Positions 29,901-35,900 of a stretch of 64,000 bases of DNA are shown here, in pieces (position 1 is the stretch's first letter; each line of letters begins with the position of its first letter). This DNA comes from Escherichia coli. Lineage in GTDB: Bacteria; Pseudomonadota; Gammaproteobacteria; Enterobacterales; Enterobacteriaceae. The position numbers are program-made. The DNA lies in assembly GCF_030013595.1 (NCBI RefSeq), contig NZ_CP122769.1. One strand, written 5' to 3'.

Positions 29901-32900
29901 TAAATATTATCCAATAGGGTTTCATACACCTGGCTTCTGAAAGCAAGGTTCAAGGAGCTTCAGGGGGAAATCAGATTGTTGTCGACCCAGTACTTGTGCA
30001 AACCTACCACCCAATTCCTGGAAATGGACGAAAGTTCATGCGCCAGTTCACGACAGCATTCAGGCGTAAAAATACGTATGGGTCCTGAAGTACCGATATC
30101 AACAGACATGATAAACTCCAGAATGTTGCCATGGCATAGGTTGTTTCTCAGCCTGACAATTTCTGCTTCAGGTGTTCTCCCGGCTGCTACCTTAACCAAC
30201 ATATCCTGCTCGGCTGGAAATGAAAGTAATTCTACCGGCACCCCTTCCTGCTTGGCCTTTCTCAGTAAGGCATTACTCATTACGGAGATACCCTCCAAGT
30301 CCACCAGCTCAGGAGCTGCATGCTGATCGTTAACTGTTGGTTTCAGCATCAGCGACTTCAACGTAACCATGAGTGATGTTTCAATCCCGTTCAGGAAGCT
30401 CGTACAGGCCGGTATCCATAGTTCGTGATGCAACGCCTCGGTTGCTTGTTTAAAGAACCAGTCAATCACGGGGACAGTGTGATAATCATAATAGTGATTT
30501 ATCTCGCTGAATCTTGACATATAAGCATCGTACTCAGCCTGGTCTTCAGGAGATAAAAAATTTGGTGGGAGGGGCATCAGAATCCTTTCATCCTAGCTTG
30601 TATACCTTCTTCGTAGGCCAGCTCGCCATTATCGGTAAAAGATGGTTTTTGGTGTTTGTGACAAAGCTTAATTTTTCGTCAGGCTCGATAGCGTTACCGG
30701 AGAGATTTGATCTTTTCTCTGTAACTCGCAATACTGTTTATACATACAGTATGAGAATTCGAGTGTAGCTATGTCTGTTATCCTTGAGCACATTAGCAAC
30801 AAGCCTTACGAAATGGCACCTTTTTTCAGTGATTTACTGAGCTGTGGAGTGATGAGTCCGTGCGCCGGGCATGAAGATAATGAATTAAATTTGCATGAAT
30901 ATGTAGTCCGTAACCGCCCCTCAACCTTCTTTGTCAGGGCGGCGGGCCTCAGTATGATCAATGCCGGTATCAATGATGGCGCTATTCTGGTTGTGGATCG
31001 GTCTTTAACGGCACGACACGGCTCTATCGTCGTTGCGCTGGTGGATGGAGAGTTCACGGTAAAGATCTTACACACGTATCCTGAGCTGCTTTTGATGCCT
31101 TCTAATCCAGCCTATAAGCCGATACGTGTAAATCCCGAATCCCTTGAGATATGGGGCGTCGTCACCTTTGCACTGAATCAGTTTAGCCATGTACATGCAC
31201 GTTGATATTAACGGGGCCTATGCGGCATTTGAGTGTGCGATGGATCCCAAGCTGGCAAAAAAGCCGCTCATCATAGCCAGCAATAACGATTCGTCCGTCA
31301 TTGCAATGAATAAACTGGCTAAAAGCGTTGGTATTAAGCGTGGGACCCCAATTTTTAAGTGCAGGGATTTGATTCAGCAACACCAGATCGAAGTCCGGAG
31401 CTCTAACTTTACTTTGTATGAAGACTACTCAAATCGCTTCCATGAAACGCTGGAAAGCTTCGCGCCTCAATCGAGTCGATATAGCATAGATGAAAATTTC
31501 ATGTTATTGAAAAACATGAACAAGATAATAGATTATGAAGATTACGGCCGGTTGATCAGAAGTACACTTCTTCATAATCTGTCCCTTACCTGTGGTGTGG
31601 GGTGTTCAAGCACCAAAACCCTGGCTAAATTATGCACCTATGCGAGCAAACGATGGGCAGCTACAGGCGGGGTTGTAGTTTTGACTGATCAGGCCAGGAT
31701 CAGGAAGCTCCTGGGCCTTATCAGTACCAGAGAAATATGGGGTATTGGTCAAAAGATCAGTGAACGCCTGTCGGCTTTCGGGATCATCACTGCCGGTGAT
31801 TTTTATAATAGCGACGTTCGCTTTTTACGTAAAAGCTTTGGCGTTGAAATCGAGCGTACCTGGCGGGAACTGCATGGCGAACCATGTTTCCGGCTGCATG
31901 AATCCCCTCCTGTCCGGCAACAGATTATCGTTTCCAGAAGTTTTGGTCAGCGCCTTAATGAGATAGGCAAGCTACATGAGGCAGTTTCATTTTTTACCGC
32001 CCGGGCGGCAGAGCAGCTGCGCAAGGATGGCTCGTGGACCCGTCAAATCACAGTCTTCATTCAGAGCAGCAATTATGCGCAAGGTGAAAACCGCTACAGC
32101 AATTGTGGTATCGAGCCGCTTACCGCTACACAGGACACCCGCGATCTGGTTGATGCAGCCATGACCATCCTGAACCGCATTTACAAACCCGGGATAGCGT
32201 ATGCGAAAGCTGGGGTAATGCTCTCCGCTATGACTGACGGCACAGAGCAACTCAGCCTGTTTGATGAGCGCCCGGCCAGGCCTGGCAGTCAGGCACTGAT
32301 GAAAGTTATGGACCGGTTCAATAAAGAAAAGCGCGGAGCTCTGTTTTTGCTGGGGGAAGGCATTCAACAGGATTTTCGTATGAAACAGGCCATGCTATCA
32401 CCGAGATATACGACCCGCTGGGATGAATTACTCGTTGTAAAAGCGTAGCGGCCATGACCGGCATGGCCGTACTCATCAAAAGTGAAAGTAACTTTAGGCC
32501 CCGCGAGCTTTTTCGATTGCGCCCTGCAAAGTTGCTGCGTCCATAGCCCCGGGGATAAATGTGGTAGTCGCCGCATTCGGCTTTTTCATATTCATAATGA
32601 TGAAGCCGGGTGTGCCGGTGATCCCAAGCGCTTCGCCCAGCTGCATGTTGCCGGAGATCACGTTTTCATATCGGTTTTTTTCCCTGTCAGAAAACGTGCT
32701 GTTAAACCCTGACTTATCCACCACAGTATTAAAGTCGCTGAGTTCGAATTTGCGTTGAGAGGTCATGAAGGTATGAGCCACAGCCATCAGGTTGTTGTGG
32801 TATTTACGATAGGCTTCAGCACCGAAATTCTGATAGACGTGCAGACCCGTAGCGGCCCCCATGGCAGATACAGGTTTTGAACCGGCAAAAATCGGGAATT

Positions 32901-35900
32901 CTTTAAAGAAGAATTTTACATCTTTGCTCTGATTCATTACCGATTCAACAACAGGTGTAACCCGCATGCAGTAAATACACTGATAGTCGAAGAACTCGAT
33001 TACCGCGACGTCGGCGTCATCCGGGCCGATGTTTGGCGTCTCCTTGGTATCCAGCAGAGCTGGCGCATATGGAATTATTCGTTCCACTGAGGCACTTACG
33101 TTCTGATTTTCCAGCGCCTTACCTGCTTCCACTAAATAATGGGGATTTTTTACCAGGTAAGTAGCGGCAATTTTGCCAATTTCTTCCTCACTGAGCACCT
33201 TCGGTTTAAAATAAGTTGCCGCGATTAACGCCGAGGCAGCGGTAGCAATTACCGCAGAAATTAAAATCGTGGCCATCGGTTTTAAATAAAATTCTTTAGA
33301 CATAGCTACCTTTATGCTTTTCAGCCTGTTAGTTATTAACCTGCGATGGATTATACTGGCCCGGTAAATCGGAATTATTCGTGAAACAATGCTTTTTGGA
33401 GATTAAAGGATGATTAGGCAGGGCTTTATACTCACAACCGCAATGCTTTTGAGTGGTTGTGGATATCATTTCGCAAACCAGGTAGATGCGTACGATCTAA
33501 TGCCTCGTCCTGTTACAAATAAAAGGTTTCAGATAGTCCCTCCGGACGAAAGTATTCAGTCCAGAATGTTTTCAGGCCGTTTTGCTGATGGATTAGCAAA
33601 AAAAGGAGTCATTATTTCCACTCACCAGCCAGATTATGTGCTCAGGTTCCGAATGAGCAGCTCACAGGAGAACATGCAGTATAGCGAGCAGCTTCTTACT
33701 GGGGTGACAGGCTACGTTGTAGATAAAAAGACAACGAGAACTGACAAGCATGGCGAATCGCATACTGACTATGACTACAGGCCGGTCGATGGGGTAATAG
33801 GCACTGAGACGATGTCGCAGATGCACTATATGCGACAGCTGGATGTCGAGGTATACCCGTCAGCGAAAGGAGCAAAGCAGGTTCTGAAAGTGAGTATGCA
33901 AAGCAATGCACCTGTGCCGTCAGACAGCATTGCTTATTCAGCAATGATCGACGCCTTTACTGATAAATTTGATGCGCCGCTGCGTTCCGGAAATTATGTT
34001 GCAGTGATCCCCTGGAACTGAAAGCAGACGGCGGGAAGAGAATGTTCAAAAGTGACTTTTGGACACGCACATAAACGTGGCTATCGCCCTCCCCCATTAA
34101 AATCATAAAGTCGGTAAAGATCGCCCATCGTGATGGAATTGGGCTTATTAATGATTAGATACTGTAACTGTTCTTTATGTTGAGTACTGGCGGCTGCATT
34201 CATAAGCACTTCCAGGTAGAACTTGTAGCCTATGCTTCGCTCTGAATACATATACTGGAACTGCATCAGTAAAATGCCTGACATAACATACAACAGCAGC
34301 AGACTGAGTAACACAGTGCTATCAGGCTGTTCCAGTGCCATACTGACATACCCTGAACCCAGAATGCACAGAAGCCAACCCGTCATTAGAGCAGGCACCC
34401 TACGACTCAGACGTTCATAACAACGTTTTATTACGGGATCCCGGAGATACTTTTTGTCAGGTATCCCCGTTGCCCTGATGACGAAGTTACTGAGTATCGA
34501 CATCTTTTTTCCTTCTGGACGCTCTCAGTCAATAAATCAGGCCAGGCGCTCATTGAAAGCTACCACGAGCTGCGAATCGGGATTTTTTACCAGTTCGGGC
34601 CGGATAACTTTTAGTTGCCTCGTTGGGGCGAGCTCATCTGTAGGCCTGATGGTGGTATTACCCGGCCCCTTGCGGGTACTGTCGGTGTTTACCTTGAGCT
34701 TTTTATTTCCCAGGTAGCTTTCCATCTTTTTAGAGATGGTGTCACCTGTGGTCGCAACACCAGAGAGTTCCTTTAGTTGTTCACCTTGATCCATTTGTAC
34801 CGATGACATCAGAAATACGATTCCTGGATCGTTTTCCGTTCCACAGGCTCCGTACTGACATTGTGCAGCGAAAACGGGCTGTACACCTACAGCAACCAGC
34901 ATTAACGTACTCAGTAAAGTAGATTTCATACACACCTCTTACAGTCGGAAAAGTTACTTTTGCGCAGCGCCCATTTGGGTCACCAGGTTTTCCGGGCTCA
35001 GCCACCCCGTAAATAACTGCGGTTTGCCGCTTAGTGTCACCATGGTAGGAGTACCTTGCAGCGGGATTGTTGAGGCCACCTGGAAATGCGATTTGATAAT
35101 GTTTAAGCAAGCCTCATCAGGACGTCCTTCCGGGATAGTTGAAACCGGATTCATCGCTGCATCCAGAGCTTCGTTTGGCTTTGCTGAACACCAGATTTTG
35201 GCCATGTTCCCGGCTACTACCGAGTTCAGTCCTGCACGTGGGAATGCAAGAAACTTAATCGAAATACCGGCATCAAGATAAGACTTCAGATCATGATGCA
35301 GTTTTTGGCAGTATCCACAGGTTATATCGGTAAAGATAGCAAGCCGGTATTTTTCGTTTGGTGATTTGTAGTCGATGGATTTTGTTTTGGATGCGAATTC
35401 CCGGACGCCCATTAAAATGGCCTGCTCAGTGGTGTTTACCACATCTTTACCTTTCACGTGGAATAAGCTTCCGGTAAAAATGTAATCTCCGTCTTTGCTC
35501 ACGTAACTTACCCCCTCCCTGGAAATCACCGTAAAAATATCTTTTACTGGCGAGGGTTCGACGTGCTCGATTGAAAGCCCAATGGCTTTGAGCTTATCCC
35601 GGGCTGCATCTGGCAGTACCATTGTATTAACCGGCTCGGCATTCATCGTGAAGGCGGTACTTAATGAAAGAAGTAATACCGATGCCTTAATAATTTTTTT
35701 CATTTATGCTCCTTGAATCGAGCACTAATATTATCACGCCCAAAAATTCCAGAATTTTGCTTAAACGCTTAAATCAACGGGTAAAGCCGAAAGAAAGTCG
35801 ATAGATATATGGGAGAATAGATAAAACGTAGATTCAGTGGAGAAATCGTTGTGTTTACACCACCAGCAGATGATGTGAAACCTATTCCCGTTCCTGATGA

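Follow-up and report, generated by a model that had tools for sequence, protein, structure and literature searches.

A conserved gene block with two periplasmic disulfide enzymes on the Tra1 flank of an IncHI2 plasmid, and their probable part in conjugative transfer

The stretch of DNA analyzed here, called the window throughout, comprises 64,000 nucleotides of Escherichia coli contig NZ_CP122769.1 (assembly GCF_030013595.1) and belongs to an IncHI2, MOBH, MPF_F plasmid. Between positions 32494 and 35703 it carries a block of five genes, two of which code for periplasmic thiol-disulfide oxidoreductases, one DsbC-like and the other a DsbA-family protein related to BcfH and ScsC. The region is likely to belong to the conserved backbone beside Tra1, the transfer region, and to provide two auxiliary folding enzymes for the MPF_F type IV secretion system (T4SS) and the H-pilus. 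The first-pass annotation of the window had proposed a plasmid-encoded disulfide-bond system dedicated to pilus or T4SS assembly: two periplasmic oxidoreductases on the Tra1 flank were indeed found, whereas neither the single system nor its dedication to transfer could be upheld. The genes, their families, folds and motifs, their synteny and the purifying selection that acts on them were established directly in this analysis.

All the open reading frames (ORFs) described earlier were recovered at the same coordinates, together with their CxxC motifs (CIYC, CGYC, and CQFC). The description of the locus as a cluster of thiol-disulfide proteins applies to the two oxidoreductases but not to the lipoprotein and the secreted protein, which had been counted as redox components, and the cluster of four genes, itself correct, contains an overlooked fifth one (34081-34503, minus strand, 140 aa). 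The block and its two divergent spacers are arranged as follows:

32494..33303, minus strand: DsbA-family, BcfH/ScsC-like oxidoreductase, 269 aa, with CIYC at residues 109-112 and a GTP loop
33304..33409: divergent spacer between the DsbA-family and lipoprotein genes, 106 bp
33410..34021, plus strand: lipoprotein, 203 aa, lipobox LLSG|C with Gly at +2
34081..34503, minus strand: inner-membrane protein, 140 aa, with two hydrophobic segments at about residues 38-57 and 63-82
34537..34929, minus strand: small secreted protein of 130 aa, counted from the ATG at 34929, in an ORF that extends to 34935
34954..35703, minus strand: DsbC-like disulfide isomerase, 249 aa, with signal peptide, DsbC_N, thioredoxin domain, CGYC, and GTP loop
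35704..35850: divergent spacer between the dsbC-like gene and the adjacent lytic transglycosylase (SLT) gene, 147 bp, GC content 0.36

The order is therefore DsbC-like protein, 130-aa secreted protein with a C-x4-C motif, 140-aa membrane protein, lipoprotein and DsbA-family protein, and the block lies beside the genes for SLT, TrhG, TrhH, and TrhF.

The identification of the 249-aa protein as a DsbC-like isomerase with a CGYC active site was confirmed by its Pfam domains, DsbC_N (PF10411, 7.4e-14, residues 32-89) and Thioredoxin_2 (4e-16), and by full-length alignment, from residue 33 onward, to the solved structures of Yersinia DsbC (4npb, 1.2e-43) and E. coli DsbC (1eej, 8e-37). CGYC, at residues 129-132, falls on the active site in both the Yersinia and the Salmonella DsbC, C172 and C199 are aligned with the second cysteine pair of Yersinia DsbC, and the GTP motif is found within LQGTPTMV. 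The score against the NCBIfam DsbC model (NF008129) reaches 178.3 bits where the equivalog cutoff is 215, and the protein is therefore considered a plasmid paralogue of the DsbC family rather than the chromosomal equivalog. Its identity to the R27 counterpart (84%) is on par with that of the transfer proteins TrhF (84%) and TrhH (87%).

The 269-aa protein matches Pfam DSBA (PF01323, 6.5e-20) as well as Thioredoxin_4, and its top match in PDB by phmmer (1.5e-35, residues 37-268) is 7JVE, the structure of Salmonella BcfH, a trimeric oxidase/isomerase (PMC11653150), with whose stem residues 37-64 align. The next matches, P. mirabilis ScsC, C. crescentus ScsC, and Wolbachia DsbA2, are all DsbA-like proteins that oligomerize through their N-termini. 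An AlphaFold2 model (pLDDT 87.7) has a helix at residues 7-31 and helices at residues 39-52 and 54-83, followed by the DsbA fold. When this model was searched with Foldseek, six out of six BcfH chains came on top and the ScsC chains after them, full-length BcfH and ScsC being the best fold matches, and TM-scores normalized to target length reached 0.84-0.88 against ScsC catalytic domains. CIYC and GTP occupy invariant columns in an alignment of 37 homologues. The ScsC_N domain (PF18312), carried by most homologues at 36-41% identity, gave a weak match at residues 40-67 of the window protein (15.8 bits for a cutoff of 25.8). Taken together, alignment and modeled fold identify the 269-aa protein as a homologue of the trimeric oxidases/isomerases BcfH and ScsC, with a predicted helical stem at residues 39-83. 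Its R27 counterpart is 75% identical. The protein was also considered as HtdT, which was ruled out, htdT being R0027 of the Tra2 AC operon.

Near its N-terminus the 269-aa protein bears a hydrophobic segment of about 22 residues (10-31), and no AxA cleavage site is conserved in the IncHI clade. Relatives encoded by the F plasmid and by chromosomes have ordinary cleavable signal peptides ending in A-x-A, and some relatives have a transmembrane (TM) segment and a long linker. The earlier suggestion that the protein is anchored in the membrane is plausible.

In R27 (IncHI1), the gene order is trhF-trhH-trhG-HAD-SLT-DsbC-130aa-140aa-lipoprotein-DsbA-umuCD. In three more contig families (four contigs), whose lipoproteins are 51%, 47%, and 39% identical to that of the window, the block is still joined to the genes for TraG, TraH, and TraF; the contig with the 39%-identical lipoprotein is the shortest and contains only part of the block. 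Because the order SLT-DsbC-small-small-lipoprotein-DsbA is kept in these divergent contigs while the flank beyond the DsbA-family gene varies (umuDC, a PLD-like gene, or others), the block is assigned, on comparative grounds, to the conserved Tra1-side backbone rather than to a set of accidental neighbors. The five genes share 45-84% amino-acid identity with their collinear R27 counterparts (45-87% for the nine genes compared). Synonymous divergence (dS) from R27 is saturated in six of these nine genes, those for the DsbA-like protein, the lipoprotein, the DsbC-like protein, TrhF, TrhH, and TrhG, and amounts to 1.8-2.4 in the other three, which are the only ones for which the ratio of nonsynonymous to synonymous divergence (dN/dS) could be computed (0.21 for the 140-aa gene, 0.19 for the 130-aa gene, and 0.03 for SLT). 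All five genes of the block are real and under purifying selection. A rough Poisson estimate, which assumes a background rate, gives P ~1e-4 for three periplasmic thioredoxin-fold genes among about 60 genes; the grouping of these genes is judged to be beyond chance, chiefly from the synteny shared with R27 and divergent IncHI-like contigs.

Elton and colleagues, in work dating from 2005, reportedly observed that overproduction of DsbC(R27) or HtdT(R27), but not of TrhF(R27), undid the hypersensitivity of dsbA-mutant mating to dithiothreitol (DTT), and this rescue by DsbC(R27) or HtdT(R27) is said to have required the CxxC motif. Two further pieces of functional evidence also come from the R27 literature. 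On the one hand, as related in PMC10838148, deletion of the R27 dsbC gene lowers conjugation 10,000-fold, only in a dsbC-null host; host DsbC masks the phenotype, and the function is therefore auxiliary or redundant rather than dedicated. On the other hand, in a list of R27 genes in which R0126 is trhF, R0130 codes for a TrbN-like muramidase and R0135 is labeled “dsbA, outer membrane protein,” R0129, R0130, and R0135 were induced 3.1-3.8-fold with the tra genes at the transfer-permissive temperature of 25 °C (PMC7366339). According to gene order and to these labels, the DsbC-like gene would correspond to R0131 and the DsbA-family gene to R0135.

The DsbC-like protein would be exported, would dimerize through DsbC_N and, as with E. 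coli DsbC and F TrbB, would presumably be kept reduced by host DsbD; overlapping with host DsbC, it would reshuffle wrong disulfides in Cys-rich Trh proteins of the periplasm or outer membrane, the expected clients being TrhH in the window and TrhN and TrhU in Tra2, outside the window. The 269-aa protein most likely works as a membrane-tethered oxidase/isomerase whose substrates are envelope proteins of the transfer system or others that the plasmid encodes; its stem, which corresponds to the one that forms trimers in BcfH and ScsC, may have the same function, and its R27 counterpart appears to be turned on with the transfer genes in the cold. Client proteins, trimer formation, membrane anchoring and operon structure are inferences, as is a role in transfer for the BcfH-like protein.

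Homologues of the 269-aa protein are common on plasmids: tblastn retrieved 3183 plasmid records, 2454 of them predicted to be conjugative and 1132 of them from Klebsiella. Among the contexts sampled, such genes lie directly after traI in an Enterobacter IncF plasmid, after traX-finO in a Klebsiella IncFII plasmid, and between trbI and traW in Serratia. Homologues of about 42% identity recur in many Klebsiella plasmids (10 of 40 sampled matches). One of the Klebsiella plasmids, NZ_CP016815.1 (K. pneumoniae IncHI1B/IncFIB, pLVPK-type, non-mobilizable), has at 6590-8738 the arrangement DsbC-small-small-DsbA-...-HAD, in which the dsbC-like gene is truncated by IS1 and the BcfH-like protein (318 aa) has a TM segment and a long linker; the stretch looks like the leftover of an IncHI-type Tra1 flank without transfer genes. 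The two small ORFs of this plasmid were compared with the 130-aa and 140-aa proteins, but at 24% and 16% identity and with one Cys aligned, homology was not established.

Beyond the dsbC-like gene lie the transfer genes to which the block is attached:

35851..36390, plus strand: TrbN/IagB-like lytic transglycosylase (Pfam SLT; NCBIfam TrbN, 7e-23)
38617..42570, minus strand: TrhG, mating-pair protein of the TraG_N family, with 4 Cys in its first 250 residues
42579..43994, minus strand: TrhH, TraH family (Pfam TraH, 5e-57), with 7 Cys in the 471-aa form
43984..45030, minus strand: TrhF, TraF-like, 348 aa, with CQFC and a C-terminal thioredoxin fold

Within the transfer system, SLT is the specialized muramidase, and R0130 corresponds to it in R27. 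TrhF had been announced as a further TraF/TrbB-like CxxC protein, and it does belong there (TIGR02740 “TraF-like,” 328.7 bits for a cutoff of 232; PF13728 TraF, 2.6e-51); in the proposed alignment with the thioredoxin-like transfer proteins of R27, both cysteines of CQFC are kept at the identity given above. In the F plasmid, TraN, TraU, and TraH contain 22, 11, and 6 cysteines, respectively (PMC11315126), TraH depends on DsbA and TrbB (PMC7555446), and TrbB, an isomerase dependent on DsbD, is believed to act on these Cys-rich proteins (PMC11315126, PMC7555446). By analogy, TrhH is a candidate client of the Dsb enzymes. Two other genes are found between SLT and trhG. The first (36473-37039, plus strand) codes for a HAD_SAK_2-domain protein and is kept in R27 and in pLVPK-type plasmids; in R27 it corresponds to R0129, one of the genes induced at 25 °C. 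The second (37147-38436, minus strand), situated in IncHI2 between the HAD gene and trhG, codes for a 429-aa protein with an HNH motif and was not found in R27, nor in the Buttiauxella and L007 contigs.

No DsbB-, DsbD-, or ScsB-like partner is annotated across the whole of NZ_CP117034.1, an IncHI2 record from pig Salmonella that is collinear with the entire window. The only membrane protein of the block, the 140-aa protein, matches no family, and its cysteines vary; it is therefore no DsbB/DsbD/ScsB-type partner and offers no candidate for one. Since such a partner is not encoded, the two enzymes must rely on the redox machinery of the host.

The five genes occupy both strands, with the lipoprotein gene on the plus strand, opposite to the other four, and form at least three transcription units. 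The dsbC-like and 130-aa genes are 18-24 bp apart and the 130-aa and 140-aa genes 33 bp apart, a tight spacing that suggests co-transcription; the three genes probably share one transcript. In the spacer between the DsbA-family and lipoprotein genes, ATTATACTG at 33350-33358 is invariant in an alignment of four divergent plasmids; it reads TATAAT on the minus strand (33350-33355), 47 nt before the ATG of the DsbA-family gene, and TATACT on the plus strand. The spacer between the dsbC-like and SLT genes likewise contains the blocks TATTATCACGC and TGGGAGAAT, invariant in the cross-plasmid alignment. All these elements persist across plasmids whose synonymous coding sites have heavily diverged, and they may have a promoter or other regulatory role. 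A scan of 32300-37200 for two-hexamer sigma-70 consensus promoters returned none where 7.5 were expected, and terminators were not in excess over the same interval; the scan is therefore uninformative on operon structure. Conserved elements resembling a -10 hexamer emerged solely from aligning the plasmids with one another.

The three companion genes code for conserved envelope proteins that are specific to IncHI and are not redox enzymes. None of the three gave a meaningful match in Pfam (to E = 10) or in NCBIfam, and neither the secreted 130-aa protein nor the 2-TM protein has a thioredoxin fold. The lipoprotein was correctly called as such: its lipobox is conserved in all aligned homologues. 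Its sole cysteine is the lipidation site, which leaves it without any redox feature. Its family is small, with 18 clusters, of which one matches DUF4136 weakly; its AlphaFold2 model (pLDDT 88.2) shows an alpha/beta fold of the PelC/TraT/LptE/DUF4136 kind, in which one beta-hairpin is very long (strands spanning about residues 86-111 and 117-150). This fold is akin to that of ring-forming outer-membrane lipoproteins such as PelC (a dodecamer), TraT (a decamer), and CsgG, and the lipoprotein might, if the model is a guide, form an oligomeric ring joined to the transfer apparatus. In the 140-aa protein, an N-terminal GIPDxxYLxDPVI and a C-terminal GDLYRLHDFN are conserved in the alignment. The secreted, Cys-containing character of the 130-aa protein was likewise verified, with a signal peptide ending in PVFAA and a mature N-terminus QCQYGAC; the ATG at 34929, preceded by AAGAGG, is its likelier start. 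C24 and C29, which form a C-x4-C right after the signal peptide, are invariant in nine sequences with identities down to 30%, and the C-terminal motif DELAPVRQLKAIRPELV..P..ER is conserved. Possible roles of the protein, whose family is confined to IncHI-like plasmids, are those of a Dsb client and of an accessory subunit. In RefSeq/PGAP records of IncHI2 plasmids, two of these genes are called shorter, with 115 aa for the lipoprotein and 86 aa for the membrane protein (L001 15675-16022 and 16082-16342). Such starts are probably mis-set: homologues with as little as 27-39% identity still share the long forms of 203 and 140 aa, every aligned lipoprotein homologue has the lipobox, and R27 is annotated with the full length.

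The 4.5 kb around the block matched 1009 plasmid records by megablast; in 519 of them, found in Escherichia, Enterobacter, Salmonella, Klebsiella, and Citrobacter, identity was at least 99%, and with hundreds of sequenced plasmids it is 100% here. The type of the matching plasmids is IncHI2A/MOBH/MPF_F. Along the window, the sil and pco genes, an IS10-type element in pcoD, blaTEM-1 and mcr-1.1, umuDC, the Dsb block and a complete Tra1 follow one another, Tra1 comprising trhG, trhH, and trhF, regulators, mobI, the MobH relaxase, the coupling protein and others. The resistance genes lie 7-9 kb from the block, on its upstream side, and pco/sil 15-30 kb from it:

23125-23985, plus strand: blaTEM-1
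24225-25850, plus strand: mcr-1.1, whose translation begins MMQHTSVWYRRSV

The IS10/ISVsa5-type element (IS4 family; 11676-12992, with its transposase ORF at 11782-12990 on the plus strand) breaks the frame of pcoD into ORFs 11368-11712 and 13036-13635 and is missing from the otherwise collinear NZ_CP117034.1. In pSTM6-275, the match to the window begins only at position 29060, and different resistance genes precede it.

Several points weigh against a role of the two enzymes in transfer. The conjugation phenotype belongs to the R27 gene rather than to the IncHI2 genes and is known from a second-hand account of the original work. R0131 and R0135 were assigned by gene order, and PMC7366339 cites Elton 2005 for R0135, so that the gene tested could be R0135; the R27 DsbC-like gene is, moreover, not among the thermoregulated genes listed (PMC7366339), and the function of R0135 was stated to be unknown in 2024 (PMC10838148). 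With host DsbC masking the R27 phenotype, the plasmid gene may contribute next to nothing in ordinary hosts. Finally, ScsC-type proteins serve copper tolerance elsewhere, and a sampled Aeromonas homologue of the 269-aa protein has no tra neighbors.

The last points are also those that would favor a transfer function for the DsbC-like gene alone, the BcfH/ScsC-like protein being devoted to envelope redox homeostasis, copper stress or the folding of other surface proteins. Of its nearest characterized relatives, BcfH serves the biogenesis of fimbriae and ScsC copper tolerance, pco/sil are 15-30 kb off on IncHI2, and the Aeromonas homologue and the lack of a known function for R0135 (PMC10838148) fit such a split. 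R27, however, has a DsbA-family gene at the same position with no pco/sil annotated in the 40 kb around it, no ScsB or ScsD partner is found nearby, R0135 is co-induced with tra at 25 °C, and homologues lie within tra operons, which makes the split doubtful; the first two of these observations led copper tolerance to be rejected as the main role of the 269-aa protein. That the Dsb enzymes chiefly help the cargo of the plasmid, as a back-up for the folding of MCR-1 and TEM-1, is highly improbable. MCR enzymes depend on DsbA (PMC8863373), mcr-1.1 and blaTEM-1 are close by, and BcfH and ScsC proteins partly substitute for DsbA in E. coli, but the block is an ancient part of the IncHI backbone that R27 shares, as do plasmids lacking mcr-1 and blaTEM-1, and the two resistance genes sit in a variable region flanked by insertion sequences where pSTM6-275 has others. 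Clinical isolates with MCR-1, whose plasmid types are unstated, are moreover still sensitized by inhibition of DsbB (PMC8863373). The closeness of mcr-1.1 and blaTEM-1 to the block is probably coincidental.

At the other extreme, all five genes, perhaps with SLT, could form one functional envelope module for the assembly of the H-pilus and the T4SS, in which the BcfH-like and DsbC-like enzymes oxidize and proof-read the C-x4-C protein and the Trh proteins, and the lipoprotein and the 2-TM protein are structural or targeting partners. The block is inherited whole beside SLT-TraG-TraH-TraF, down to 39-47% lipoprotein identity, while its other flank changes; the cysteine pair of the secreted protein is invariant, the dsbC/130-aa/140-aa spacing is tight, the lipoprotein resembles ring-formers that include the conjugation protein TraT, and all genes are under purifying selection. 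Such a module is nonetheless unlikely: both strands are used and the transcription units number three or more, R0135 alone of the block is in the R27 thermoregulated list (PMC7366339), and the pLVPK-type plasmid has DsbC, two small ORFs that are not clearly homologous, and DsbA without the lipoprotein. The three companion proteins, furthermore, match no family, and synteny in a low-recombination backbone is no proof of joint function. Its most far-reaching form, an unrecognized IncHI-type assembly module in which a tethered BcfH/ScsC-like trimer and DsbC would act on the C-x4-C and Trh proteins with a ring of lipoproteins and the 2-TM protein as structural partners, and in which BcfH/ScsC trimers would be a recurrent feature of F-type conjugation, is quite improbable; if true, it would make H-pilus assembly robust in the cold and across hosts with differing Dsb machinery. 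Two auxiliary folding enzymes on a conserved Tra1 flank remain the probable reading.

mcr-1 is among the resistance genes for which IncHI2 plasmids are major vehicles, and the transfer apparatus of these plasmids depends on envelope proteins with the right disulfide bonds. Plasmid-encoded Dsb enzymes may buffer transfer against differences between hosts and could blunt anti-virulence or anti-resistance approaches directed against host DsbA or DsbB. The principle itself, that F-type transfer systems encode their own thioredoxin-fold folding catalysts, is already known and, according to secondary accounts, was published for R27 and F in 2005. Less charted are the second enzyme of BcfH/ScsC type, its probable tether and its recurrence in F-type tra operons, the secreted protein with its invariant C-x4-C, and the PelC/TraT-like lipoprotein, all of them modest leads.

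Compared with known systems, the DsbC-like gene has its closest parallel in R27, where dsbC occupies the same place downstream of trhF-trhH-trhG and SLT. With chromosomal DsbC the window protein shares the signal peptide, DsbC_N, the second cysteine pair and the GTP loop, the CGYC being identical to that of E. coli DsbC; it differs by a 5-residue insertion before its fourth Cys, and its gene lies on a plasmid, with two small IncHI-specific genes downstream. BcfH and ScsC share with the 269-aa protein the DsbA-like domain with its helical insertion, the CxxC and the G-T-P loop, and probably the helical stem, which is predicted in the 269-aa protein, but at about 30-40% identity; they have a cleavable signal peptide instead of the hydrophobic N-terminus, a probable uncleaved anchor, and they are encoded in a fimbrial or copper-tolerance operon instead of a conjugation region.

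TrbB and TraF of F and TrhF and HtdT of R27 follow the same logic, that of periplasmic thioredoxin-fold proteins belonging to F-type transfer systems. Unlike the enzymes of the block, however, F TrbB and TraF are monomeric, have disordered N-termini and are not of the DsbC or DsbA family, and R27 HtdT is encoded in Tra2, outside the window. The IncT plasmid Rts1 (MOBH/MPF_F) has two DsbA-family genes, one DsbC-family gene and one TraF-like gene across its transfer regions (4222-5130, 11970-12815, 17193-17939, and 39796-40887). Its DsbA-family protein Orf206, like s054 of SXT, is required for transfer even in dsbC+ hosts (PMC10838148). Similarity of Rts1 proteins to those of the block is marginal (Orf206, 6e-7 over 54 residues; the second DsbA-family protein, 1e-10; Orf212, 1e-5), and DsbP of IncA/C plasmids matches the DsbC-like protein of the window at 3.7e-12. 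Orf206 was considered as an orthologue of the 269-aa protein and set aside, the similarity being local, around the active site, which leaves a functional analogy. The Dsb genes of Rts1, SXT, and IncA/C elements lie inside tra operons, whereas those of the window form a flanking block; the set found in Rts1 shows that several Dsb-type genes are usual in MOBH/MPF_F elements.

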